The notes: generated by a model not told the origin, from the letters alone. DNA of 64,000 bases from an uncultured Solirubrobacteraceae bacterium (GCA_963744685.1 CAVUUL010000006.1:301749-365748), one strand, 5' to 3'; numbered from the stretch's first letter, positions 29,550-53,403 are shown. Translations and numbers: made by a program.

Positions 29550-29567
29550 GGAGGGTGGGGTGATGCG

Positions 29568-29975
29568 GACGGTTCGCGATGTGGCATGCCGTGACGCCGG
29601 CCGTCAAGCAGCGCCCGCACTCCCATGGCCTCCGTGCGAGGTTTCGGGCGCTGCTTGACTGCCGTCGCCCCGTCATGCCATCGGCAGTGAGGTCGAGCCC
29701 ACTTCGTGTGCACGACCTCGCGCCAACTGCGACTGTCCGGACGGCACTGATCACCCACCCGCGACGGGCTGCGCGCCAGGTTGGGGGATCTTCTCCGTGA
29801 GGCGGATCGGATCACCCACACGGCCTCGGACCGTGCGGTGAGTGGGCGAAACGTTCCCCCGGAGACGCCAGCTGGGCATCAAACGCAAGCAGGGCTGTCG
29901 TTTGATGCCCAGGTCCCTCGTTCGGACGGCTCACATCAGCCCAAGTGCGGGACGCTGCTTGACGGCGGACGCCAG
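29568..29975 (+). repeat. Structured repeat element, copy A (terminal inverted repeats 29601-29620 and 29945-29965)
   Basis: It is the reverse complement of 46293-46800. It contains three TCAAGCAGCG cores and several long hairpins. No credible CDS. Confidence 0.85.
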
Positions 29976-37321: not shown

Positions 37322-37687
37322 TCACGGTTGCTCCTCGATGACCGTGCGGATGGCGCTGGAGGACTCGAGCAGAATCACCGCGCTCGCCGCCACCAGCATG
37401 GCGGCGAGCAGCGTCACCACCACCCCGAGGGTGCCCTTTCCGATCGGCCCCGCGCCGATCACGGGGCTGAGCGGGACCGGCAGGACGATCTGGACGGCCA
37501 GCTCGACCGGCGCCACGCGCGACGCGGAGAAATGCTGGAGTGCGCTCATCTCCGCGACCAGCCCGACGCCCCCGCCCACGGCGCTCACCAGGATCCAGCC
37601 GGCGACCGCGTCGGTGTCGCTTCGGTGCAGCGCCGCGGCGGCGAGCGCTGTGCTCATCCCCGAGGCCGCAAAGCACAGGCCGCCCAT
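37322..37687 (-). CDS. Small 4-TM membrane protein
   Basis: Four hydrophobic helices. The start is uncertain: ATG at 37687, or 37786, which would overlap the divergent deacetylase gene. Confidence 0.4.
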   Translation of the reverse strand: MGGLCFAASGMSTALAAAALHRSDTDAVAGWILVSAVGGGVGLVAEMSALQHFSASRVAPVELAVQIVLPVPLSPVIGAGPIGKGTLGVVVTLLAAMLVAASAVILLESSSAIRTVIEEQP

Positions 37688-37711
37688 CGCGGCGCTAGCG
37701 CTACCGATCCC

Positions 37712-38410
37712 ATGAGCGGACGGGCCCTGTTTCGCGGCGCGGTCGGCGCGGCGGTCGTCCAGTTCGCGCCGGCGATCTCGTGCCATGCCCCGCGGGTGTG
37801 CGACATGCTCTCACTGCGCCGCCAGCTCCAGGTCGGGGGGACGGTCGCGCTCACGTTCGACGACGGACCGCACCCCGAGGGGACCGCCGCCGTGCTGTCG
37901 GTGTTGGCCGGCCACGATGCGAAGGCGACGTTCTTTCTCGTGGGCGAGCAGGTCCGGCGCTTTCCTTCGCTGGCGCGGGAGATCGTCGACGCCGGCCACT
38001 CCATCGGTCTGCACGGTGAAACCCACCGCTGCGAGCTGCGATTGACGCCCGGCATGCTCGCCGAAGACCGGGCGCGCGGCCTGGAGTCGATCCACTCCGC
38101 CACCGGCGTGCGGCCGATCATCCACCGACCGCCCTACGGGGCCGCCAGCGGGCCGGGGGTGGCGCACGCGAGACGCGAGGGGATGGAGACCGTCCTCTGG
38201 AGTCGCTGGGGCCGGGACTGGCGCGCCGCGGCGACCGCGGACACGGTGCTGCGCGACGTCACACGCTCCGGCCCCCTCGACCGTGAGATCGTGCTCCTGC
38301 ACGACGCCGATCACTACGCCGCCCATGGGAGCTTCCAGGCGACGGTGGGGGCGTTACCGGGGATCCTCGAGCGCTGCGCCGAGCAGGGGCTCACCCCGGT
38401 GCGGCTCTGA
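37712..38410 (+). CDS. Polysaccharide deacetylase (NodB/CE4 family)
   Basis: TFDDGP, GLHGETH and LLHD motifs. Confidence 0.8.
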   Translation: MSGRALFRGAVGAAVVQFAPAISCHAPRVCDMLSLRRQLQVGGTVALTFDDGPHPEGTAAVLSVLAGHDAKATFFLVGEQVRRFPSLAREIVDAGHSIGLHGETHRCELRLTPGMLAEDRARGLESIHSATGVRPIIHRPPYGAASGPGVAHARREGMETVLWSRWGRDWRAAATADTVLRDVTRSGPLDREIVLLHDADHYAAHGSFQATVGALPGILERCAEQGLTPVRL

Positions 38411-38486: not shown

Positions 38487-39140
38487 CTAGGACGCGGAGG
38501 CGCTGGCGAACGCCGTGAACGCCTCGATGACGCTGCGCAGGTGCTCGTGCATTGCCCTCTCGGCCGCCGCGGAGTCGTGGTTGACGACGGCCTCGACGAT
38601 CGCCTCGTGCTGAGGCAGCGAGACGGCGGAGCGTCCGGGAACCAGCGAGAGCGTGAACTGGTGGCGGACGGTGAGGCCGCGGAGCTGCTCGAGCAACTGA
38701 GCGGCGATCGTATGGCCGGAGATCTCCCGCAGCGTCGCGTGCAGGGTCACGTTGAGCTCGCTGTAGCGCATCAGCTCGCCGTTCTCGACCGCGACGCGCA
38801 TGTCCTTGGCGAGCTGCCGGAGCGCCGCCGCCTGCGCTCGGGTCACCCGTTCGGCGGCGCGAGCCGCCTCGTGGCCCTCGAGCAGCATCCGGACCTCGGT
38901 GATCTCGATTGCCTCGCCGAGACTGACGTCTCGCACGCGTGCGCCGCGATTGCGCTGGAACTCGACCAGGCCCTGCGCGGCCAGGTCCTGGAGGGCGGTG
39001 CGGATCTGAAAGCGCGACGCCCCGAACCGCTCGCACAGGTCGGCCTCGATCAGCCGCTGGCGAGGTGCGAAGCTGCCGTCGAGGATCGCGTCCCGGATCC
39101 GGTCCGTGAGGGTGATGATCGGGCTCTCTTCTGGGCTCAT
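38487..39140 (-). CDS. GntR-family regulator (FadR/FCD subfamily)
   Basis: N-terminal wHTH (...QRLIEADLCERFGASRFQIRTALQDLAAQGLV) and an FCD-type helical C-terminus. Confidence 0.9.
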   Translation of the reverse strand: MSPEESPIITLTDRIRDAILDGSFAPRQRLIEADLCERFGASRFQIRTALQDLAAQGLVEFQRNRGARVRDVSLGEAIEITEVRMLLEGHEAARAAERVTRAQAAALRQLAKDMRVAVENGELMRYSELNVTLHATLREISGHTIAAQLLEQLRGLTVRHQFTLSLVPGRSAVSLPQHEAIVEAVVNHDSAAAERAMHEHLRSVIEAFTAFASASAS

Positions 39141-39204
39141 GGCTGCTCGGCGGGGTCTCGACGGGGCGTGGAGGCTGGCACAGACTAGGCCGGCAATCCG
39201 CTGA

Positions 39205-39279
39205 TTGTCAACAAAGCTGAGCCGAGTGAGGCGACTCGTGCAACGATCTCCATTCGAATTCGCGCAATATTGTTGACAT
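39205..39279. promoter_or_regulatory. Two GntR-type operator candidates (TTGTCAACAA at 39205-39214; TTGTTGACAT at 39270-39279)
   Basis: TTGT-NN-ACAA palindromes fit the GntR/FadR t.GT.N.AC.a half-site logic. The two sites share the 9-mer TGTCAACAA in opposite orientation. Confidence 0.4.
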
Positions 39280-39301
39280 TCTGAGCGGTGACGTCTGTAC
39301 T
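39273..39301 (+). promoter_or_regulatory. Candidate promoter TTGACA-N17-TGTACT for the PIG-L/RraA/dioxygenase operon
   Basis: Perfect -35 (39273-39278) and a 4/6 -10 (39296-39301). The predicted TSS is about 39308, at the GTG 39309, which implies a leaderless mRNA. Confidence 0.35.
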
Positions 39302-39308
39302 ACACCTC

Positions 39309-40025
39309 GTGAGTGGTCGCAGATTGTTGGTGATCGGTGCGCATTCCGCCGATTTTGTCTGGCGCGCGGGCGGCGCGATCGCGGTGTGCACCGCCACCGG
39401 CGGCGAGGCGCAGGTGGTTGCGCTCTCCTACGGCGAGCGGGGCGAGTCGGGGGAGCTGTGGAAGCAGGACGACCAGACGACCGAGAACGTCAAGCGCATC
39501 CGCCACGGCGAGGCCGAGCGCGCCGCGGCGCACCTCGGCGCGTCGTTTCGCGCCCTGGATCTCGGTGACTATCCGCTCGAGATCGATTCCGAGGCGCTTC
39601 TGCAGATCACCGACGTGATCCGCGAGTTCGCCCCCGACGTGCTGATCACGCACACCGATACCGACCCGTTCAACCCCGACCATCCGGTGGCCTATCGCGC
39701 GGTCGACCGCGCGCGCAGTCTGGCGGCGGGGGCGGGAGTGCCGAGCTCGTTTCGGACGGTCCGACCGCCGCAGCTGTTCCTGTTCGAGCCCCACCAGCCG
39801 GAGCTGTGCAACTTCACGCCGACGACGTTCCTCGACATCACCGCGGTCTTCGATCGCAAGGTGGCGGCGATGGCGGAGATGAAGGCGCAGGCCTATCTGC
39901 AGACCTACTACCGCGAGCGCGCCGATCACCGCGGCAACCATGCGCGGCGCGCGTCGGGCGACCAGTCGATCCGCCAGGCCGAGGCGTTTCAGCGGGTGAT
40001 ACCGCAGGTGGTGAGTGCGCTGTGA
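39309..40025 (+). CDS. PIG-L/LmbE-family zinc hydrolase, GalB-like (putative 4-oxalomesaconate hydratase)
   Basis: LLVIGAHSADFVWRAGG and HTDTDPFNPDHP metal motifs of the PIG-L fold. Its context with an RraA-like aldolase matches gallate-pathway GalB/GalC. An alternative start lies at 39288. Confidence 0.6.
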   Translation: MSGRRLLVIGAHSADFVWRAGGAIAVCTATGGEAQVVALSYGERGESGELWKQDDQTTENVKRIRHGEAERAAAHLGASFRALDLGDYPLEIDSEALLQITDVIREFAPDVLITHTDTDPFNPDHPVAYRAVDRARSLAAGAGVPSSFRTVRPPQLFLFEPHQPELCNFTPTTFLDITAVFDRKVAAMAEMKAQAYLQTYYRERADHRGNHARRASGDQSIRQAEAFQRVIPQVVSAL

Positions 40026-40657
40026 CCGTCTCGGAGCAGACGCTGCGGGAGCTGGCGCGGCTCGGCGCCGCGACCGTATACGAGGCGGGTGGCCGCGGCC
40101 GGTTCGTCGACGTCGATCTACATCAGATCGTGCCCGGGTCCCGGGTGGCAGGTCCGGCGCGGACGGTGCGCTGCGGTCAGGACGACAACCTGATGGTTCA
40201 CGCCGTGATGGCGTCGGTGCAGCGTGGGGAGATCATCGTCCTGACGATGCCCGAGCCGCGCCCCATCGCGTTGGTCGGCGATCTGCTTGCCACCCAGGCG
40301 CTCACCCAGGGCGCGGCCGGCATGCTGATCGACGCCTCGGTGCGCGACCTCGAGGAGCTGCGCGAGCTGGGCCTGCCGATCTGGGCGCGCTGGGTCCGGG
40401 TGCATGGAGCCGTCAAGGACGTCGTCGGAGCGATCGGTGAGCCGGTCATCGTCGGCGGCGCTCAGATCAGCACCGGCGACGTGCTGGTGATGGACGCCGA
40501 CGGCGTGGCGGTGGTCGAGGCCGGGCGGGCCGAGGAGGTGCTGCAGGCATCGCTTGAGCGGGAGGGGCGCGAGGCGGACAAGCGCGAGCAGCTGCGTGCC
40601 GGAGGCCTGTCCTACGACCTGGACGGATTACGCGCGCGGGTGGAGAGCGGCGGGTGA
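40022..40657 (+). CDS. RraA-family protein, GalC/LigK-like (putative 4-carboxy-4-hydroxy-2-oxoadipate aldolase / oxaloacetate decarboxylase)
   Basis: ...TVYEAGGR...GDLLATQALTQGAAGMLIDASVRDLEEL...GDVLVMDADGV. GTGA overlap with the upstream gene. Confidence 0.7.
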   Translation: MTVSEQTLRELARLGAATVYEAGGRGRFVDVDLHQIVPGSRVAGPARTVRCGQDDNLMVHAVMASVQRGEIIVLTMPEPRPIALVGDLLATQALTQGAAGMLIDASVRDLEELRELGLPIWARWVRVHGAVKDVVGAIGEPVIVGGAQISTGDVLVMDADGVAVVEAGRAEEVLQASLEREGREADKREQLRAGGLSYDLDGLRARVESGG

Positions 40658-41667
40658 CAGCGAACAACGCGCTCACGCGCGATGTCGCGCACATCCATCA
40701 CGCCGAGCTGCTCACCCCGTACCCGGAGCGCAGCGAGCGCTTCTTCGTCGAGCTGTTCGGGATGCAGGTGGTCGCGCGCGAGCGCCAGTCGGTGTTCCTG
40801 CGCGGCTGGGGTGAGACGCAGGTCTACGGCCTGAAGCTCACCGAGGCGCCGCTGCCCGGCCTCGGCCACCTCGCGCTGCGGACCTGGGACGCCGAGGGGC
40901 TGGCGCGGCGGGTGGCCGCGATCGAGGCCACGGGCCTGGGGGAGGGATGGACCGAGGGTGATCTCGGGCATGGCCCTGCCTATCGGTTCCGCGACCCGGA
41001 TGGGCACACCCTGGAGATCCTGTTCGAGGCCTCGCGCTACGCGCCGCCCGACGCGCTTCGCCCGCGGTTGAAGAACGTGCCCCAGCGTCACGTCGATCGC
41101 GGCGCCGCGGTCAAGCGCCTGGACCACGCCAACCTGCTCGCCGCCGATGTGACCGCCTGCCGCGAGTTCTCGGTGCAGACGCTCGGCTGCCGTCTGTACG
41201 AGCAGGTGATCCTCGACTCCGGTGAGGAGGCGGGGGCGTGGATGAGCTTCACCATCGCCGCCCACGAGCTGATCTACACCGCCGACCACATGCGTGGCCG
41301 GGGCCGGCTGCATCATCTCGCCTGGTTCGTCGACACCCGCGAGGAGCTGCTGCGCGCCGCCGACCTGTTCCTCGATGCGGACGTCCCGATCGAGGCGGCG
41401 CCGTCCAAGCACGCTGTCGCTCAGGGGATGTTCCTCTACGTGTATGAGCCCGGCGGCAACCGGGTCGAGGTCACGACGGGCACCCACTTCATCTATGACC
41501 CGGACTACGAGCCGGTCGTCTGGACCGAGGCGGAGCGCCGCCGCGGCCAGGCGTGGGGCGTGGCGACCGTCCCGACCTTCCACACGTACGGCACGCCCGA
41601 TCTGTCCGGTGCTGCGCCCGGGCCACCGATCCCACCGACGAGCCAGATCGTCGGCCCGGAGGTCTGA
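40654..41667 (+). CDS. Type I (two-domain VOC) extradiol dioxygenase, catechol 2,3-dioxygenase-like
   Basis: HAELLT...FRDPDGHTLEI...RLDHANLL...RLHHLAWFV...YVYEPGGNRVE pattern. GTGA overlap with the upstream gene. Confidence 0.8.
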   Translation: MTANNALTRDVAHIHHAELLTPYPERSERFFVELFGMQVVARERQSVFLRGWGETQVYGLKLTEAPLPGLGHLALRTWDAEGLARRVAAIEATGLGEGWTEGDLGHGPAYRFRDPDGHTLEILFEASRYAPPDALRPRLKNVPQRHVDRGAAVKRLDHANLLAADVTACREFSVQTLGCRLYEQVILDSGEEAGAWMSFTIAAHELIYTADHMRGRGRLHHLAWFVDTREELLRAADLFLDADVPIEAAPSKHAVAQGMFLYVYEPGGNRVEVTTGTHFIYDPDYEPVVWTEAERRRGQAWGVATVPTFHTYGTPDLSGAAPGPPIPPTSQIVGPEV

Positions 41668-45203: not shown

Positions 45204-46250
45204 GTGGTGGCTCAGGGGATCCCCGCCCGGGAAGAGGTGAGCGGGTCGCCCCGGGCCGATCGCGTCGCGCGGGCCAACGCCCGCTGGTACTTCGCCGGCC
45301 TCGCCGCATCTCTGATCGGCAACAGCGCCATGTCGCTGGTGGCCGGCATCTGGGTCAAGTCGCTCACGGGCTCCAGCGAGCAGGCGGGGCTGGTGGGCGG
45401 GTGCGTCTACGCGGCCACGCTGCTCGCGCCGTTCGCCGGGCTGCTCGCCGATCGGCTGCCGCGCCGGCCGCTGCTGCTCTGTCTCAACCTGATCGCCGCC
45501 GCAACGGTCGCCCTGCTGCTGCTCGTGCGCTCCCGGGGCGAGGTATGGCTGATCTTCGTGGTGATGGCGGCCTACGGGGTGCAGGCGACGCTCATGGACC
45601 CAGCCGAGGATGCGCTGTTCGCGCAGATGTTCACGACCGAGTTCCGCCGGCGGATCAACGGCTGGCGGCTGACGATCCAGGAGACCGGACGACTCGCCTC
45701 GCCGCTGCTCGGGGCTGGGCTCTTCGTATTGCTCGGCGGGGGCGCCGTGGCCGCGCTCGACGGGGCCACGTTCGTCGTTGCGGCATTCGTCGTCACGCGC
45801 CTGCGGGTTGATGAGTCCGGCGTCGCCACGGTCGTACGGCCAGGTCGGCCGCCCTGCGTGCCGGGATCACCCACATCCAGGGCGCACCCGGCCTGCGGCA
45901 GGTGGCCGTCGCAGCCACGCTCGTCATGGCCCTCTCGGGCGCCGGCGTCGCCGCTCAGTACAGCCTCGTACACGGCATCGGTCAGCGTCCGGCGTTCCTG
46001 GGCGTGCTGTCCGCCCTGCTCGGCGCGGGCTCGATCATCGCCGCCCTCTCGGCCGGCCGGCTGATCGGGTCGCTGGTGAGCGGGCGCGGCGGTGTTCGTG
46101 GCGTCTCGCGGTGGTGGGTCTGGATTGCGGGGTGGTTGGTGGGGAGCGGTGTGGGGGCGCTGGTGCGCGGCGTGGGGGTGTGGTGGTCGTGGCGATCAGC
46201 ATCGCGCAGCGACTCGGCGCCGAGCCCTCCGGGCGGGTCGCGGGGGGGTG
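45204..46250 (+). pseudogene. MFS transporter, frameshifted and 3'-truncated
   Basis: TM1-6 lie in the frame of 45204 and become nonsense after RLRVDES (~45815-45845). The protein continues as RSAALRAGITHIQGAPGLRQVAVAATLVMALSG... in the frame of 45902. A further fragment ...AISIAQRLGAEPSGRV is in a third frame. TM11-12 are absent, and repeat copy B follows. Confidence 0.55.
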
Positions 46251-46292: not shown

Positions 46293-46800
46293 GCTCAAGC
46301 AGCGCCCGCGAGGGTTCGTGGGGTCGCGGCGTGAGTCTGTGTGGGGTGGGTGGCGCTGCTGTGACTGCCGTCGCCCCGCCGCGCTATGGGCAATGAACGG
46401 GTCGCGCAGGTGCGCCTCGCACTTGGGCTGGTGTGGGTCGTCCGCGGGAGGGTGCTGGGCATCTGACGTCACTCCTGGTTGCGTGAGATGCCCAGCTCAC
46501 GCTGGGGGCGGAACGTTTTGCGCACCCGCCGCAGCCTCCGAGGCCGTGTGGGTGATGTGGTGCGCCTCGCGGAGAAGATCCCCCAGCCTGACGCGCGGCC
46601 TGTCGCGAGTGGGTCAACGGTGCCGTCCGAACCGTCTGATTTGGCGCGAGGTCGTGCACACGAAGTGGGCTCGACCTCACTGCCGATGGCATGACGGGGC
46701 GACGGCAGTCAAGCAGCGCTACAAACCTCGCACGGAGGCCATGGGAATGCGGGCGCTGCTTGACGGCCGGCGTCACGGCATGCCACATCGCGAACGTCAC
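46293..46800 (-). repeat. Structured repeat element, copy B (inverted relative to copy A)
   Basis: The reverse complement of 46641-46793 is nearly identical to 29568-29726. TCAAGCAGCG cores lie at 46295-46309, 46352-46365, 46708-46719 and 46751-46764. Confidence 0.85.
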
Positions 46801-47122
46801 ACACCACCCCGGCCGACCACACCGCACCGCGCGCCTCCGAGTCCACCACGCCGAGCAACCAACCGCGCCCACCAGATTGTCAGCAATCGCGGCGACGAGA
46901 TGTCCCGTCATCCCGCCGCCACCCACCGACCCGCCACCGCCAATCCGACCACAAGGCGGCACGCCACACGAGTCCGACTGCGCAAGGTGTAGACCTGATC
47001 TCCAACAAGATCGTTTACAATCTGTCCTCGAGGGCTACAGTGGCGGCACACAGAGGAGGGAGCCGGCGGTCGTGGACGTCTGCCGGGTTCTACGAGAGGA
47101 AATCACATGACCCCAGCCGTGT

Positions 47123-48367
47123 ATGCGTCTCATCGTCCGAGTTCGCTGGGGCGCCACGGCGGCCCTGGCCGCACTCACCGTCGCCGCGTGCGGCAGCAGC
47201 AAGTCGGGCTCGTCGGGCGGTTCCGCGACGTCGGGCAGCTCGGCCACGTCGAGCGGGTCCGCCACGTCGGGTGGGGCCACCACTGGCTCATCGTCGGGAT
47301 CGAGCGCAGGAGCGGTCTCGTCCTCGACGCTCGCGTCGCTGAAGGCATCGCTGACGAAGGCCGAGGCCACGCCGAAGTTCGTCGCCCCTGGTCCACCGGT
47401 GAGCGCGAGCGTGCTGAAGGGCAAGACGATGGTCGTGTTCCCGATCAACAGCCAGATCGACGCCTGCCAGACGCAGGCCGAGGACTTCAAGGCGCTTGGC
47501 ACGCAGCTGGGCGCCAAGGTCACGCTCGTGTCCAACTCCGGACAGCCGACGCAGTGGCAGCAGGCGGTGCAGGACGCGACCGGCGGCCATGACGCCGCGG
47601 TGGCGATGCTCTGTGGAGTCATCCCCGGCGCGATCGGCCCTCAGCTGACAGCGGCCAAGCGGGCCGGCGTGGCTGTCGTCGACGGCAACTACAACGAGAC
47701 CAGCAACTACGCGGGGCTCGATGGGGAGACCGCGGTGCAGACCGCCGAGGGAATGAAGCAGGACGTCGACGATGCGCTGGTCAACCTCAACGGCAAGCCG
47801 CTGCACGCTCTCGTCGTCACCAGCGACTCGATCATCCAGGGCCTGGCGGCCTCGGCGGCGATCGCAGCCGAGATCAAGAAGGACTGTGCGAGCCAGTGCT
47901 CGATCGAGCAGACGATCACGGTGCCGATCCAGAGCTGGGCGACCTCGGTCCAGTCCGACGTCGCCTCGGCGCTGACCGCCCACCCGAGCGTCAACGCGGT
48001 GATCGTGCCCTTTGACGGCCTCACCCAGTTCGTCGATCCGGCGCTCACCCACTCGCATACCAGTGGCCTGAAGGTCTACACGTGGGGCGGTAGCCGATCG
48101 GTGGAGAAGCTCCTTGCGTCAGGCGGCGTCATCGCAGCCGACCCTGGACCCGACGAGCAGTGGGACGCGTATGAGGCGATGGATCAGGTCATCCGCCTGG
48201 TCAACCACAAGTCTGCCGCGCCGGTGGCCAAGGAGGTGGACCCCAACCGCTTCTGGGTCTCCTCGAACGTGTCCTCGTTCTTTGGGCCGGGCGGCAGCTA
48301 CGGCAACAAGGGTTACGGCGGCAACGCGTTCGTGAACGGATTCGACAAACTGTGGGGCGTCTCCTGA
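47123..48367 (+). CDS. Sugar ABC transporter substrate-binding lipoprotein (type I periplasmic-binding fold)
   Basis: Signal peptide with lipobox LTVAAC, a Ser/Gly-rich linker and a PBP-like body. Confidence 0.8.
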   Translation: MRLIVRVRWGATAALAALTVAACGSSKSGSSGGSATSGSSATSSGSATSGGATTGSSSGSSAGAVSSSTLASLKASLTKAEATPKFVAPGPPVSASVLKGKTMVVFPINSQIDACQTQAEDFKALGTQLGAKVTLVSNSGQPTQWQQAVQDATGGHDAAVAMLCGVIPGAIGPQLTAAKRAGVAVVDGNYNETSNYAGLDGETAVQTAEGMKQDVDDALVNLNGKPLHALVVTSDSIIQGLAASAAIAAEIKKDCASQCSIEQTITVPIQSWATSVQSDVASALTAHPSVNAVIVPFDGLTQFVDPALTHSHTSGLKVYTWGGSRSVEKLLASGGVIAADPGPDEQWDAYEAMDQVIRLVNHKSAAPVAKEVDPNRFWVSSNVSSFFGPGGSYGNKGYGGNAFVNGFDKLWGVS

Positions 48368-48388
48368 GCCACGCAGACCGCGTCCTCG

Positions 48389-50008
48389 ATGACCGCAGAT
48401 AACGACCAGGAAGCGCCCCCGCCGGCGCAGGGTGAGGCCCCGTCGCTCCAGGCGAGGGGCCTCGCCAAGCGGTTCGGGGCCCAATGGGCGCTGCGGGGCG
48501 TCGACCTGGAGATCCACCGCGGCGAGGTGGTGGCGCTGCTGGGCGAGAACGGCTCGGGCAAGTCGACCCTGGTCAAGATCCTGGCCGGCTACCACGAGCC
48601 CGAGCCGGGCGGGACGCTGTCGATGGCCGGCCGCCCGGTCGCGTTGCCGGTCGCGCTCGGCGGCTTCCACGACGCCGGCTTGGCGTTCGTCTTCCAGGAT
48701 CTCGGGCTGGCCAACGAGCTGACCGTGGTGGAGAACCTGTTCGTCGGCCGCCGGCTCTCCGGGACCGGGGCGCGGGCGATCAACTGGCGTGCCGAGCGGC
48801 GCGAAGCACAGGAGGTCTTTGCGCGGTACTCGGTCGATCTGGACGCCTCGGCCCAGGTCGGGCGGCTGCGCCCGACTGCCCAGGCGCTGCTTGCGATCGT
48901 GCGCGCCGCCGAGGAACTGCGCACGTACCGCGCCACCTCGGGCGCGACCGGCGGGGTTCTCGTGCTCGACGAGCCGACGGTGTTCCTGCCCGAGCACGAG
49001 AAGGTGTTCCTGTTCGATCTGGTGCGCCGGGTCGTCGCCGACGGGACCGGCGTCCTGTTCGTCTCCCACGACATGACCGCGGTGCGTGAGATCAGCCACC
49101 GCGCCGTCGTCCTACGCGACGGCGGCAAGGTGGGCGACGCAACGGTCGCCGACACCACCGACGCCGAGCTCGTCCAGATGGTGTCGGGCCATCGTCTGGC
49201 CGCGGTCGCCGCCTCAGAGGATCACGCAAAGGCTGCCGGCGGCGGGGAGGTCGTGCTGTCGATCGACGGTGTGCGCGGTGGGCGCCTGCGCGACGTCGCG
49301 CTCGAGGTCCGCGCCGGAGAGATCGTCGGCGTCGCGGGCCTGCTCGGCTCGGGCACCGAGGATCTGCCCTACGTCCTCTTCGGTGCGGTCGGCGACGGCG
49401 AAGGACGCATCTCCGTCGGCGACTGGTCCGGCGAGATCTCCGATCTGGATCCGGCCGGCGCACAGCGGCTCGGCGTGGCGCTCGTGCCGGCCGACCGCAA
49501 GCAGCTGGGGGTGGCCGCGGCGCTGTCGGTGGAGAAGAACATGCTGTCGCTCGTCCTCGGACGCTACGTCCGCCGCGGGGTGCTCGCCCACCGCCAGATG
49601 CACGACACGGCTCGAAAGCGCAGCGAGACCTACGACGTGCGGCCCCGCAACCCCAGCGCGAGCATGAACGCGCTCAGCGGGGGCAACCAGCAGAAGGTGG
49701 TGCTCGCGCGGTGGCTTGAGATCAACCCGCGTCTGCTCCTGCTCCACGAGCCGACCCAGGGCGTGGACGTCGCCACCCGGGCGGAGATCTACGAGATCAT
49801 GCGCGCCCGGTGCCGCGACGGGGTGGCGATCCTGTGGGTCAGCACAGACTTCGATGAGCTTGCCGCGGTCGCGCACCGGGTGCTGATCTGCGCCGGCGGA
49901 CGGATCGCGGGCCGCCTGTCGGCTCCTCTGACCCGGGATCGGATCACGAGCGAGGTCTACGCGACTGCCGCGCGCGGTGGAACCAGAGAGGTGGCAGCGA
50001 CGTCATGA
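48389..50008 (+). CDS. Sugar ABC transporter ATP-binding protein (tandem NBDs, RbsA/MglA type)
   Basis: First NBD has GENGSGKST and LVLDEP. The second NBD has a degenerate Walker A, LSGGNQQK and LLLHEPTQGVD. Confidence 0.9.
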   Translation: MTADNDQEAPPPAQGEAPSLQARGLAKRFGAQWALRGVDLEIHRGEVVALLGENGSGKSTLVKILAGYHEPEPGGTLSMAGRPVALPVALGGFHDAGLAFVFQDLGLANELTVVENLFVGRRLSGTGARAINWRAERREAQEVFARYSVDLDASAQVGRLRPTAQALLAIVRAAEELRTYRATSGATGGVLVLDEPTVFLPEHEKVFLFDLVRRVVADGTGVLFVSHDMTAVREISHRAVVLRDGGKVGDATVADTTDAELVQMVSGHRLAAVAASEDHAKAAGGGEVVLSIDGVRGGRLRDVALEVRAGEIVGVAGLLGSGTEDLPYVLFGAVGDGEGRISVGDWSGEISDLDPAGAQRLGVALVPADRKQLGVAAALSVEKNMLSLVLGRYVRRGVLAHRQMHDTARKRSETYDVRPRNPSASMNALSGGNQQKVVLARWLEINPRLLLLHEPTQGVDVATRAEIYEIMRARCRDGVAILWVSTDFDELAAVAHRVLICAGGRIAGRLSAPLTRDRITSEVYATAARGGTREVAATS

Positions 50009-51035
50009 CGGCCAACGTGGATCAGCCGCCGCCCGCGGAGACGCCGTCCGGCGGCACCGGCGCGGCGACGCCAGGGCTGGAGCGCTCCAGAAGGGGCAAG
50101 ATCCTGGAGAGCGCGATGCTGCCGATCGCGTTCATCGCGGTGGTCGTGGGCTTCGGGTTGCACTCGCCTGATCAGTTCCTCACGGTCTCGAACTTCTCGA
50201 ACATCTTCGGGTCCCAGGCCGTCCTGTTCGTGCTCACGATGGCGCTGCTGATGCCGCTGACCAATGGCGATCTCGACCTGTCGGTGGGGGCGCTCTCGGG
50301 GCTGGTCTCGATGATCATCGCCGTGCTCAACGTCAATGACCACATGGCGATCGTTCCGTGCATCGTGATCGGCCTCGCCGTCGGGCTCGCCTGTGGCCTG
50401 ATCAACGGCTTGATCATCGTCCGCTTCGACGTCAACCCGTTCATCATCACTCTCGCCACCGGCACCGTGTTCGGCGGGATCCAGGAGTGGCTGTCCAAGG
50501 AGCAGACGATCGTCGGTGTCTCGACCCAGCTGAGCAACTGGACGTTCGGCAACGAACTGCTGGGGATCCCGATCGAGTTCTACTACGGGCTCGGTGATCA
50601 TGCTCGTCATGTTCTTCGTCCTGACGTTCACCGCGTTCGGGCAGCGGGCGCTGTTCGTCGGGCAGTCGCGTGAAGTCGCCCGGCTGAGCGGGTTCAAGGT
50701 CGGATCGATGCGCCTGTGGGGCTTCGTGATCGCCGGCCTCGTGGCGGGGATCTCCGGCGTCCTGTTCGTGGGCACGACGGGCTCGGCGAGCGCCGGGACC
50801 GGCGCCAACCTGCTGCTGCCCGCCTACGCGGCGGCGTTCCTCGGGCTGACCACGATCCAGCCGGGCCGCTTCAACGCGATCGGGTCGGGGATCTCGGTCT
50901 ACTTCCTGGCCACCGGCGTCGCCGGGAATGCTCGGCGCCCAGGACTACGTGCAGTCGCTGTTCTACGGCGTCGTTCTGGTGATCGCGGTGGTGCTGTCGC
51001 GGCTGGTCAACAGGCGCAGTGTCGGCGTCAGCTGA
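50005..51035 (+). pseudogene. Sugar ABC permease (RbsC/AraH type) interrupted by two +1 frameshifts
   Basis: The frame of 50005 reads through ...IEFYYGL. The protein continues as VIMLVMFFVLTFTAFGQRALFVGQSREVARLSG in the frame of 50594. After ...FLATGVAG it continues as MLGAQDYVQSLFYGVVLVIAVVLSRLVNRR and stops at 51033-51035 in the third frame. Confidence 0.6.
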
Positions 51036-51081
51036 GCCACCGGGCGGGCATCCGGTCCCGTCGGCGCGGGCCCGCGAGGCC

Positions 51082-51960
51082 GTGCGCGGCGGCTTTGACC
51101 CGCACGTGCACGTCGCGCCCGATTTCGCCCCGCGCCGGATCACCGATCTGGAGCTGGCGCTGCGCTGCGAGGAGGTCGGCCTGGCGGGGTTCGGGCTGAA
51201 GTCCCACTACACCGCCACGCACGAGCGAGCTGCGGTTGTCAGCGCCGCGCGTCCCGGAATCCGCGCGCTGGGCACGATCACGCTCAACCACGCGGTCGGC
51301 GGTCTGAACGCGACGGCGGTCGAGGTCGCCGCGCGGCAGGGGGCGCGGATCGTCTGGCTGCCGACGGTGAGCTCCCCGCAGGAGTTCCAGGAGGTGCAGG
51401 ACACCGACCCCAACGGCAAGGTCCCCGTCTGGGTCGGTTTCGAGCTCGAGCTCCGGGCCGCCGGGGTCCGCCCCGGTCCGGTGGCGGTCCTGGACGAGTC
51501 CGGGCGCCCGCTGCCCGCCCTGCTGGAGGTCCTGGAGGTGGTGGCCCACCACGGCATCGCACTGGCGACCGGGCATCTCTGCCAGCGCGAGATCGTTGCC
51601 GTCGTCGACGCTGCCGTCGCTGCCGGGGTGGAGACCGTCGTCGTCACCCACCCCGAGTTCCCCTCGCAGTCGATCCCGCCCGCCGTTCAGCGCGATCTCG
51701 CCGACCGGGGCGCCCTGATGGAGCGCGCGTTCACAACCCCGTACACCGGCAAGTGCACCTGGGAGGCGGTGTTTGAGGCGACCCGCGCCGTCGGGGCTGC
51801 ACGCACCGTCTGGGGCTCGGATCTCGGGCAGGTGTTCAACCCACCGGTGGAGGATGGGCTGGCGATCATGGCCGACCGGTTCCTCGCGGCCGGGTTCAGC
51901 GACGAGGAGGTCCGGCTGATGGCCGTCGAGAACACGCGACGGCTGGCCGGCGCCGGCTGA
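51082..51960 (+). CDS. Amidohydrolase-fold (DUF6282-like) metal-dependent hydrolase
   Basis: FDPHVHVAPD metal motif, then ...THPEF... and ...WGSDLGQ. The start is uncertain: GTG at 51082 or 51019. Confidence 0.6.
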   Translation: MRGGFDPHVHVAPDFAPRRITDLELALRCEEVGLAGFGLKSHYTATHERAAVVSAARPGIRALGTITLNHAVGGLNATAVEVAARQGARIVWLPTVSSPQEFQEVQDTDPNGKVPVWVGFELELRAAGVRPGPVAVLDESGRPLPALLEVLEVVAHHGIALATGHLCQREIVAVVDAAVAAGVETVVVTHPEFPSQSIPPAVQRDLADRGALMERAFTTPYTGKCTWEAVFEATRAVGAARTVWGSDLGQVFNPPVEDGLAIMADRFLAAGFSDEEVRLMAVENTRRLAGAG

Positions 51961-51997
51961 CGCCTCGCGCGCCGGCGGCCGGTAGCATCGCCGCGGA

Positions 51998-52477
51998 ATG
52001 AGGCCGTGGCCCCGCCCAGCAAGACGACGCGCGGCCGCGACGCTCCTCGCTGCCGGCATCTCGATCTCGGTGAGCGCGTGCGGCGGCTCGTCATCGTCCG
52101 GGGGCAGCGGCTCGTCGACTCCGGCGACCTCGGCCTTGACCTCGACCTCGAGCGCCGCCGGGGCGACCTCCACCGCGGCCGATCCCACGACTCAGAGCAC
52201 GACCGCCTCGCAGAGCGCGGGCTCGGGTGCGCAGGGGTCCTCGAACGCCGCGGGGCTGAAGGTGTTCACGAGCGCCGGCTGCGGCTCGTGCCACACGCTC
52301 GCCGCCGCCCATGCGAATGGCAACGTCGGGCCGAACCTCGACGACCTCACGCCCTCCGCGGCGCGGGTTGCCACCCAGGTCACCAACGGCGGCCCGGCGA
52401 TGCCGAGCTTCTCCAGCCGGCTTTCGAAGGCGCAGATAGCGGCGGTCGCCAAGTTCGTCGCCTCAGCCTCCGGATGA
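51998..52477 (+). CDS. Class I c-type cytochrome lipoprotein
   Basis: Lipobox SVSAC, a long Ser/Thr/Ala linker, heme motif CGSCH and a distal PAMPSF Met ligand. Confidence 0.8.
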   Translation: MRPWPRPARRRAAATLLAAGISISVSACGGSSSSGGSGSSTPATSALTSTSSAAGATSTAADPTTQSTTASQSAGSGAQGSSNAAGLKVFTSAGCGSCHTLAAAHANGNVGPNLDDLTPSAARVATQVTNGGPAMPSFSSRLSKAQIAAVAKFVASASG

Positions 52478-53403
52478 CGGCCGAGATCGACGATCCGCGC
52501 CTGGCGCCGCTGATCGATCCCGACGCAGAGTTGCGGCGGCTGTGGACCGGCGGAGACTGGACGGAGGGGCCCGTCTATGTCCCGGCGGAGGACTGTGTCT
52601 ACTGGAGCGACATCCCGAACGACCGGGTGCTGCGCTTCAGCGAAGCCGACGGCGCGTCGGTGGCGGTGCACCCGGCCGGATATGCCAACGGGCACACGCT
52701 CGATCACGAGGGCCGGATCGTCCGCTGCGAGCACGGCGGGCGCCGGGTGAGCCGCCTCGAGCACGACGGATCGCTGCACACGATCGCCGATCGCTACGCG
52801 GGCGGCCGGCTCAACTCGCCCAACGACGTCGTCGTCAAGTCCGATGGCGCGATCTGGTTCACCGATCCGCCGTACGGGATCGTGTCCGACCGCGAGGGGC
52901 ACAAGGCCGACTCCGAGCAGGAGGGCTGCTTCGTGTTCCGCTGCGACCCCGCGGCCGGCTCGCTGCAGCTGGTCAGCGACGGGCTCGAGGACCCCAACGG
53001 GCTCGCCTTCTCACCCGACGAGTCGATCCTGTACGTCTCGGACACCTCGGCGGCGCGCCACGAGGGCGGGCACCACCACCTGTTCGCCTTCGATGTGGTC
53101 GACGACGGCACCCGGCTGGTCAACCAGCGAGTGTTCGCCGTCTGCGATCCCGGCGTGTTCGACGGCTTTCGCGTCGATGTCGACGGCAACGTGTGGACGT
53201 CCGCCGGGGAGAGCGTCGTCATCTACGCGCCCGACGGGACCCGCCTCGGCCGGATTCCGATGCCCGAGGAGGTCTCCAACTGCACCTTCGGTGGACCGGC
53301 GGGCACCACGCTGTTCATCACGGCGACGAGTTCGCTCTACGCGTTGACCGTTGCCACCACGGGCGCGAACTTCTTCCCGCCTGGCGCGGGCTCGCCCAGG
53401 TAG
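52474..53403 (+). CDS. SMP-30/gluconolactonase/LRE-family beta-propeller protein
   Basis: ...EGPVY...NGHTLD...LNSPNDVVV...FTDPPYG...PNGLAFSPD...DGFRVD.... ATGA overlap with the cytochrome gene. No signal peptide seen. Confidence 0.85.
   Translation: MTAEIDDPRLAPLIDPDAELRRLWTGGDWTEGPVYVPAEDCVYWSDIPNDRVLRFSEADGASVAVHPAGYANGHTLDHEGRIVRCEHGGRRVSRLEHDGSLHTIADRYAGGRLNSPNDVVVKSDGAIWFTDPPYGIVSDREGHKADSEQEGCFVFRCDPAAGSLQLVSDGLEDPNGLAFSPDESILYVSDTSAARHEGGHHHLFAFDVVDDGTRLVNQRVFAVCDPGVFDGFRVDVDGNVWTSAGESVVIYAPDGTRLGRIPMPEEVSNCTFGGPAGTTLFITATSSLYALTVATTGANFFPPGAGSPR

Follow-up and report, generated by a model that had tools for sequence, protein, structure and literature searches.

A short operon in an uncultured Solirubrobacteraceae bacterium from soil, presumably repressed by a GntR-type regulator, on balance probably encodes a route of meta-cleavage whose substrate is gallate (3,4,5-trihydroxybenzoate) or a compound closely similar to it. 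It lies in a 64,000-nucleotide stretch of the assembly (GCA_963744685.1 CAVUUL010000006.1:301749-365748), referred to here as the window, and comprises genes for a GalB-type hydratase of the PIG-L fold, an RraA-type aldolase and a two-domain extradiol dioxygenase of the VOC family (type I). In the proposed pathway the VOC-fold enzyme, a metal-dependent dioxygenase of the 2-His-1-carboxylate type, would open the gallate ring next to the vicinal hydroxyls to give 4-oxalomesaconate (OMA), standing in for the LigB-type enzymes GalA, DesB and LigAB. A third hydroxyl on the substrate means that the tricarboxylate OMA would be formed and not a semialdehyde, and therefore no dehydrogenase would be needed. 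The GalB-type hydratase would convert OMA to CHA (4-carboxy-4-hydroxy-2-oxoadipate), and the class II aldolase of RraA fold would split CHA into pyruvate and oxaloacetate. An earlier note on this DNA had predicted such a three-enzyme route to pyruvate and oxaloacetate, and the analysis supports it. Gene order, family membership, catalytic residues, conservation and purifying selection are established by the analysis; the substrate (gallate as against protocatechuate or pyrogallol), the OMA product, the handling of the keto and enol forms of OMA without GalD, and the effector of the regulator are inferred.

Organisation of the operon

The features concerned are as follows.

38487-39140, minus strand: GntR/FCD regulator gene, facing the three plus-strand genes
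39141-39287, no strand: divergent promoter/operator region, as read from the sequence
39288-40025, plus strand: GalB-type hydratase gene, PIG-L fold
40022-40657, plus strand: RraA-type CHA aldolase gene, GTG start at 40022
40654-41667, plus strand: two-domain type I (VOC) extradiol dioxygenase gene, proposed gallate dioxygenase
50983-51960, plus strand: DUF6282 amidohydrolase-superfamily gene (PF19799, E 3.7e-60)

GTGA stop/start overlaps at 40022-40025 and 40654-40657 join the three plus-strand genes, and the GTG start at 40022 is chosen because homology begins there. Gene order, both overlaps and the divergent regulator are present as the earlier note had described them. Its family assignments are borne out by Pfam, with GntR (E 3.5e-13) and FCD (E 1.3e-24) in the regulator, PIG-L (E 1e-21), RraA-like (E 1.8e-32) and two stretches of Glyoxalase/VOC (PF00903, E 1.7e-18), and the motifs it quoted, AHSAD and HTDTDPFNPDHP, are both found in the translation. 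Comparison with 80 related loci, nearly all from Solirubrobacterales, places the GalB-like, RraA-like and VOC genes in the window's order in 77, a recurrence that puts the arrangement far beyond chance. All three window genes are under purifying selection, with dN/dS between 0.08 and 0.19 (0.08-0.19 for the hydratase, 0.12-0.19 for the aldolase and 0.09-0.16 for the VOC gene).

The hydratase and the aldolase

GalB of Pseudomonas putida is a zinc enzyme of the PIG-L fold, and the CHA aldolases GalC and LigK are RraA-like; the ring-cleaving enzymes GalA and LigAB belong to the LigB type (type II). The window hydratase matches the P. putida GalB structure (5CGZ) at E 9.3e-60 over residues 13-243 with about 50% identity, and other PIG-L chains follow at 4.5e-06 (TT1542) or worse, with MshB and other deacetylases at about 1e-3. 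In the 5CGZ alignment the His/Asp/His metal ligands are kept, PDHP aligns with YDHP, and the segments GERGES (Glu-48) and FEPHQPE (His-164) are identical. Both proteins read AHSAD, which puts Ala at the position of the Asp that serves deacetylases as general base. The roles of the metal ligands, of the Ala-for-Asp change and of the catalytic residues Glu-48 and His-164 in GalB are said to have been described by Mazurkewich et al. in 2016; the 5CGZ chain numbering is +4 relative to the residue numbers of that paper. NCBIfam models for the mycothiol and bacillithiol deacetylases reach 29-62 bits against cut-offs of 182-277. The reservation that the protein might group with the true deacetylases MshB and LmbE is thus answered in favour of GalB by the structure match and by the Ala at the general-base position. 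These features support its assignment as a Zn-dependent GalB-type hydratase of OMA (or 4-carboxy-2-hydroxymuconate, CHM), predicted to convert OMA/CHM to CHA.

The second protein matches the HMG/CHA aldolase 3NOJ (HMG, 4-hydroxy-4-methyl-2-oxoglutarate) at E 5.4e-40. A further reservation had been that it might lack aldolase residues, but the essential Arg-123, the metal ligands Asp-124 and Glu-199 and the CHA-binding pair Asn-71/Lys-147 are all kept in the 3NOJ alignment, as are Arg-40, His-75, Gly-101, Gly-144 and Arg-195; Thr-145 to Ala is the sole change noted. The roles of these residues are known from the HMG/CHA aldolase (PMC5065237). The model of the RraA regulator of RNase E (NF006875) gives 63.1 bits, short of its cut-off of 136.

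The VOC dioxygenase

The VOC protein has 337 residues. Equivalents of the XylE metal ligands His153, His214 and Glu265 (the 2-His-1-carboxylate set) are all present, and the second-sphere residues His199, His246 and Tyr255 align identically with XylE (1MPY). XylE itself matches at 2e-36; the best PDB match is 9WGJ (E 9e-106, residues 1-318), followed by 3LM4 and 7Q2A at about 1e-76. On the catechol 2,3-dioxygenase model TIGR03211 the protein scores 287 bits, below the cut-off of 320.2, and its gene has no adjacent meta-pathway genes for 2-hydroxymuconate semialdehyde dehydrogenase or hydrolase, 4-oxalocrotonate tautomerase or 4-oxalocrotonate decarboxylase, so that neither score nor neighbourhood marks it as a catechol 2,3-dioxygenase.

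In the tree all VOC proteins linked to gal-type genes fall into one clade (SH-aLRT 96) that draws on clusters from four phyla, the exception being the enzyme of Thermus thermophilus HB8, which comes from a classical meta pathway and stands apart. The clade's other members, a few proteins whose context is different or unknown, are those of Methylobacterium and Roseomonas, a paralogue from the window's own genome and P0121 to P0124. Common to the gal-linked proteins are invariant residues that the outgroup does not have, and Arg295 and Gln299 of the window enzyme are shared only with them. Arg295 lies in the C-terminal lid, where homoprotocatechuate dioxygenase has Arg292 and Arg293, the latter of which binds the substrate carboxylate. 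The Rhodococcus enzymes 3LM4 and 7Q2A, of which 7Q2A is presumably the alkylcatechol enzyme AphC, have no arginine at the lid position.

The closest solved relative, 9WGJ (323 residues), shares the lid motif ER(K/R)RGQAWG with the window enzyme. It is deposited as 'Catechol 1,2-dioxygenase', a name that does not fit because the fold is that of a VOC extradiol enzyme; a literature search found no paper, organism or substrate for it. Identification of 9WGJ and the VOC clade with the PraA-type protocatechuate 2,3-dioxygenase was considered and rejected on length, praA having 881 bp (about 290 residues) as against 323 and 337 residues.

Two proteins 80% identical to the window enzyme, P0043 (545 residues) and P0042 (556 residues), carry an additional domain, RraA (PF03737) or SnoaL_4 (PF13577). 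These may be genuine fusions, in which case they would speak for a functional link, or products of gene calls that run on across the overlap. The window's genome also encodes a second VOC dioxygenase, 47% identical (G000 contig C8:389090-390019; locus L082:9031-10026), which lies in a different aromatic cluster with genes for a carboxylesterase, FAD-linked oxidases, an FMN reductase, an FAA hydrolase and a cupin.

Related clusters in other bacteria

Clusters of this kind occur outside the order too. Of 401 Actinomycetota genomes sampled evenly, 15 have a GalB-like gene. The VOC type is present in the window's genome and in one other genome of its family, the order DUF6282-GalB-RraA-VOC in five genomes of about 3 Mb from another family, and GntR-GalB-RraA-PrpF in four Streptomyces genomes, with the VOC gene and an aromatic-acid symporter next in both full-length loci. 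Only two of the 15 pair GalB-RraA with a LigB-type dioxygenase, and in the remaining two (G307 and G065) no dioxygenase was identified beside GalB-RraA within the stretch examined. The Streptomyces cluster reads GntR-GalB-GalC-PrpF-VOC-aromatic acid/H+ symporter, and its PrpF protein scores 491 bits on the 'OMA tautomerase' model NF033377, above the cut-off of 440.

On the pAt plasmid of Agrobacterium tumefaciens 186, a walnut isolate, genes for the PIG-L, VOC, CHA aldolase and OMA tautomerase proteins are followed by a tannase gene, and A. vitis has the same core. Plasmids of Pantoea piersonii and Paracoccaceae carry galB-galC-galD together with a VOC gene, and pTHEOS01 of Thermus oshimai has the order VOC-GntR-DUF6282-PIG-L-CHA aldolase-oxidoreductase. 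The OMA tautomerase gene is thus part of the VOC-type clusters of Streptomyces, Agrobacterium, Pantoea and Paracoccaceae and is missing from that of Thermus; an aromatic-acid symporter is present in Streptomyces and Pantoea. These clusters share with the window the same three enzyme families, with VOC proteins of one clade. They differ from it by adding an OMA tautomerase, a tannase, an aromatic-acid transporter or DUF6282, and by LysR regulators in the Proteobacteria. The annotation of their VOC proteins goes no further than 'VOC family protein' or 'catechol 2,3-dioxygenase'; no description of a VOC-GalB-GalC cluster was found in the literature. In Rhodococcus opacus DSM 44186 the partners of GalB-GalC are a LigAB-type enzyme and a LigM-like demethylase.

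The related clusters favour gallate as the substrate because they carry GalD, aromatic-acid symporters and tannase. They also bear on whether the dioxygenase product can enter the OMA/CHA route, since they place the VOC enzyme beside GalB, GalC and OMA tautomerase and, in Agrobacterium, beside a tannase as well. The 'hybrid cassette' of the earlier note is real in so far as a VOC enzyme is combined with GalB and GalC, but it is a widespread cluster type in several phyla and not peculiar to the window.

A DUF1932/NAD_binding_2 oxidoreductase gene lies in or beside a number of VOC-type gal clusters (L110, L111, L112, L113, L115 and L079), in Agrobacterium, Pantoea, Methylobacterium, Roseomonas and some Solirubrobacteraceae.

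The operon in relatives

A tblastn census over the 80 related loci finds VOC in 80, RraA in 78, GalB in 74, DUF6282 in 73, GntR in 59 and SnoaL_4 in 59. The usual operon is GntR-DUF6282-GalB-RraA-VOC-SnoaL_4, often followed by a transporter of the major facilitator superfamily (MFS) and placed among pcaIJ, pcaF, pcaHG and intradiol dioxygenase genes. In the window and in its three nearest relatives, the loci L001-L003 of the same sublineage, the GntR gene is inverted, and DUF6282 and SnoaL_4 have gone from the operon. An operon of five or six genes has thus been trimmed to the three of the window.

In most other Solirubrobacterales the DUF6282 gene follows GntR and lies directly upstream of GalB. 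The window's genome has one DUF6282 gene, at 50983-51960, whose product shares 58% identity with the DUF6282 that relatives carry inside the operon, and it is followed directly by a gene for an SMP-30/gluconolactonase-like (SGL) protein (the pair spanning 50983-53403). The earlier note had stated that no gene for a 2-pyrone-4,6-dicarboxylate (PDC) hydrolase, a 4-carboxy-2-hydroxymuconate semialdehyde dehydrogenase or an OMA tautomerase is nearby; this holds for the operon, with the qualification that DUF6282, in-operon in most relatives, is here 9.3 kb downstream of the cassette. L001-L003 have kept the DUF6282-SGL lactonase pair near the VOC gene, at a distance of 2-9 kb on its downstream side. 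The HxH/K/H/H/D residues of DUF6282 are invariant, and its AlphaFold model (pLDDT 89) is a generic amidohydrolase TIM barrel for which Foldseek returns PDC hydrolase-like, dipeptidase, lactonase and decarboxylase folds, all at TM scores of 0.5-0.6. A sequence search of the PDB gave no match and a literature search found nothing on DUF6282. It is possibly a displaced accessory of the pathway, perhaps a lactonase or isomerase, although its association with the operon is uncertain.

Between the cassette and the DUF6282-SGL pair are inserted the genes of an ABC transporter of sugar type (47111-50673), made up of Peripla_BP_4, a double ABC ATPase and a BPD_transp_2 permease. The idea that DUF6282 is here an unrelated sugar-lactone gene going with the adjacent transporter is partly rejected: no such transporter was found at the matching place in L001-L003, within the stretches compared, and yet DUF6282-SGL is close to the VOC gene in them.

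SnoaL_4/NTF2 proteins of about 190 residues are encoded immediately 3' of the VOC gene in 59 loci (L042:8990-9568 and 58 others); the homologue, gallate decarboxylase-like, is absent from the window and from its whole genome. They match the cofactor-free gallate/protocatechuate decarboxylases of fungi, AGDC1 (6W54, E 6e-25) and PPP2 (7JMR, E 6e-26), and keep W35, R39, D40, T60, W61, I84, H86, Y150 and Q192, which include the His-Asp dyad, the Trp clamp and Arg39. Y146 is changed to Arg and the K+-binding E88 to Leu (residues as in PMC7862292). Since the AGDC1/PPP2 residues are kept, a gallate- or protocatechuate-shaped ligand is expected in the operon of the relatives. Bacterial homologues reported earlier, from a lactic-acid bacterium, have been judged not to be decarboxylases of this type (PMC7862292). 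The SnoaL_4 protein may represent an unrecognised bacterial branch of decarboxylases, or a scaffold recruited as OMA tautomerase. In three of the loci (L017, L066 and L071) genes for LigM/DesA-like O-demethylases lie within 3 kb of the VOC gene, one of them beside a tannase-like gene; together with the SnoaL_4 homologue this is further context in favour of gallate.

Regulator and promoter region

The GntR/FCD gene accompanies the trio in the 59 related loci of the census and also in the Streptomyces and Thermus clusters. No NCBIfam equivalog model reaches its cut-off for the protein, which is presumed to be the repressor of the operon. In the divergent promoter region, ATTGTTGACATTCTG (39269-39283) contains a TTGACA -35 box and a GntR-like half-site and shows no change in L001 and L002, the two closest relatives. 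A second copy of TGTCAACA at 39205-39214, the distal site, is kept in L002 and deleted in L001. To judge from the DNA sequence, the regulator would bind at these sites.

The rest of the genome

The window's genome is 93% complete. Profile searches of it returned no match to PF02900 (LigB), hence no GalA-type enzyme, and none to PF04303 (PrpF), that is, no GalD-type tautomerase. The genome has a separate pobA-pcaHG-pcaIJ route for protocatechuate. P. putida KT2440 likewise degrades protocatechuate by an ortho route and gallate by the gal route. This parallel between the pca and gal-type routes of the two genomes counts in favour of gallate, and so does the lack of any LigB- or PrpF-family match.

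Alternative substrates

Several observations weigh against a gallate pathway in the window. P. putida requires GalD for growth on gallate, and a tautomerase-free route therefore needs a VOC product that is directly usable, spontaneous tautomerisation or an unrecognised substitute. The operon in the window has no transporter, tannase or tautomerase gene, and the nearby MFS gene (45204-46064) covers only positions 3-187 of the 347 in the MFS_1 profile. The aldolase scores 177.6 bits on NF006731, whose cut-off is 179, and 168.8 on TIGR02798, whose cut-off is 304.5. No characterised enzyme was found in this VOC clade, and the substrate is read from context only.

Cleavage of protocatechuate at the 4,5 position by a type I dioxygenase is an unlikely scheme, to which the Thermus cluster points. 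The VOC enzyme would yield 4-carboxy-2-hydroxymuconate semialdehyde, a dehydrogenase encoded elsewhere would lead to PDC or OMA, DUF6282 would hydrolyse PDC, and GalB and the aldolase would complete the route. The T. oshimai pTHEOS01 cluster adjoins genes for 4-hydroxybenzoate 3-monooxygenase (pobA), an aldehyde dehydrogenase and an oxidoreductase, and fits this scheme better than it fits gallate; 6 of the 80 related loci also have aldehyde dehydrogenase genes within 8 kb on either side of the VOC gene. The presence of DUF6282 in the operon of 73 of the 80 agrees with it, and the putative PDC hydrolases 2FFI and 4I6K are among the nearest folds, but at the TM scores of 0.5-0.6 the fold matches are generic. 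The operon of the window and of most relatives has no dehydrogenase, the genome already disposes of pobA-pcaHG-pcaIJ, the Agrobacterium clusters include a tannase, and several clusters have the GalD equivalog with neither dehydrogenase nor hydrolase.

The SnoaL_4 gene raises the question of pyrogallol, since a decarboxylase homologue could make pyrogallol the true ring-cleavage substrate in the relatives. Gallate would then be decarboxylated first by the AGDC1-like protein, the VOC enzyme would give 2-hydroxymuconate or 2-pyrone-6-carboxylate, and the GalB- and RraA-like enzymes would act on the 4-descarboxy analogues to yield pyruvate and malonate semialdehyde, a route that would be new and the most unusual of the variants considered. 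Catechol 2,3-dioxygenases do cleave pyrogallol, the decarboxylase homologue follows the VOC gene with its key residues kept in 59 of the 80 loci, and 22 relatives have an MFS transporter that belongs to the CynX/NimT type and not to the aromatic-acid symporters. In the window, however, the trio is under purifying selection in a genome that has no decarboxylase homologue, and its VOC protein shares 84% identity with the VOC protein of a relative in which that gene is present. The characterised HMG/CHA aldolase prefers substrates with a 4-carboxylate, OMA tautomerase accompanies the VOC enzyme in Streptomyces, Agrobacterium and Pantoea, and aromatic-acid symporters do so in Streptomyces and Pantoea; pyrogallol is given a smaller chance than protocatechuate. 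Slimmer again is the prospect of another hydroxylated aromatic acid feeding the same lower pathway, such as a substituted trihydroxybenzoate or 3-O-methylgallate, which would be cleaved to PDC or the methyl ester of OMA. The O-demethylase genes that L017, L066 and L071 have close to the VOC gene are suggestive of this, and DUF6282 or the SGL lactonase could open a pyrone; the window's operon has no esterase or lactonase, though, and the tannase of Agrobacterium points to gallate itself.

That the three genes are unrelated neighbours, namely a PIG-L deacetylase of mycothiol or bacillithiol metabolism, an RraA regulator of RNase E and a catechol 2,3-dioxygenase, is hardly credible. Only the default database and NCBIfam names speak for it. 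The Ala at the general-base position, the scores of the deacetylase and RraA regulator models far under their cut-offs, the translational overlaps and a gene order kept across phyla contradict it, and the tests of residues and synteny refute it.

Surroundings of the cassette

The window has a G+C content of about 70%, and the closest contigs are metagenome-assembled genomes of Solirubrobacteraceae. The cassette's neighbours have no relation to aromatic catabolism. Upstream lie genes for a NodB deacetylase, BacA and a GT51 transglycosylase; downstream lie those for an LPG-synthase TM protein and PolX. The NodB-type polysaccharide deacetylase family gene (37328-38410) adjoins the cassette. A gene of this type also lies directly upstream of DUF6282 in a distant actinobacterial family (L098:6775-7647) and near the VOC gene on a Methylobacterium plasmid (L112:3189-4103), which may be coincidence or may reflect an unrecognised accessory.

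A pair of 399-nucleotide inverted repeats (29557-29955 and 46412-46810, 85% complementary) encloses 16.5 kb including the cassette. Their interpretation as borders of a mobile block carrying the cassette was rejected, as blastn finds 111 whole or partial matches across the genome; with the element dispersed in this way, its position on both sides of the cassette says nothing specific about mobility.

Comparison with known systems

The gal cluster of P. putida KT2440 (GalA, GalD, GalB, GalC, GalT, GalP and GalR) resembles the window in its adjacent, co-transcribed GalB-type hydratase and RraA-fold aldolase, and pyruvate and oxaloacetate are the predicted shared end products. The window differs in having a VOC (type I) enzyme and not LigB-type GalA, a GntR/FCD regulator and not LysR, no PrpF-type GalD found in the genome, and an operon without transporter or porin. 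The 4,5-cleavage pathway for protocatechuate in Sphingobium sp. SYK-6 (LigAB, LigC, LigI, LigU, LigJ and LigK) has in common with it the conversion of OMA via CHA to pyruvate and oxaloacetate and an aldolase homologous to LigK. In contrast to SYK-6, the window's hydratase is of the GalB type and not the amidohydrolase-fold LigJ, and the operon has no homologues of LigAB, LigC, LigI or LigU.

Rhodococcus opacus PD630 lacks DesB and LigAB, and its type I catechol 2,3-dioxygenase AHK27425.1 is needed for gallate consumption (Cai et al. 2021, PMC8442903). Expressed in E. coli, AHK27425.1 removes gallate. The enzyme also cleaves methylcatechol; the authors proposed 2,3-cleavage and left the product and the downstream route open (PMC8442903). 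Like the window enzyme it is described as a VOC-fold extradiol dioxygenase of an actinobacterium without DesB or LigAB. Unlike the window enzyme, it has no reported linkage to GalB/GalC (PMC8442903). With a type I enzyme for gallate already published in R. opacus PD630, the swap of dioxygenase class is not wholly unprecedented (PMC8442903). The 'non-canonical dioxygenase class' of the earlier note stands as regards the VOC enzyme in place of a LigB-type one in this cluster. The cluster represents a variant of a known pathway in which a non-orthologous enzyme has taken over ring cleavage; it is no system of a new kind.

Implications

Gallate is the monomer of the hydrolysable tannins and an end product of syringyl-lignin breakdown. 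Its catabolism constitutes a sizeable carbon flux in soil and is a target of lignin valorisation. To our knowledge, all biochemically defined ring cleavages of gallate, or of protocatechuate at the 4,5 position, use a LigB-type enzyme. The chances are about even that the operon encodes a complete three-enzyme pathway without tautomerase and that the members of an unrecognised type I subfamily are really gallate dioxygenases, wrongly named 'catechol 2,3-dioxygenase' in thousands of genomes from at least three phyla. The minimal operon raises the question whether the OMA tautomerase step is obligatory. If the VOC enzymes of these clusters perform such cleavages, pathway predictions based on LigB/GalA would miss the route in Solirubrobacterales, Streptomyces, Microbacterium-like actinobacteria, plasmids of Agrobacterium/Rhizobium and Thermus, and the label 'catechol 2,3-dioxygenase' would be wrong on thousands of proteins. 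Engineering would then also gain a VOC enzyme of one subunit that is smaller than the fused GalA/DesB type.

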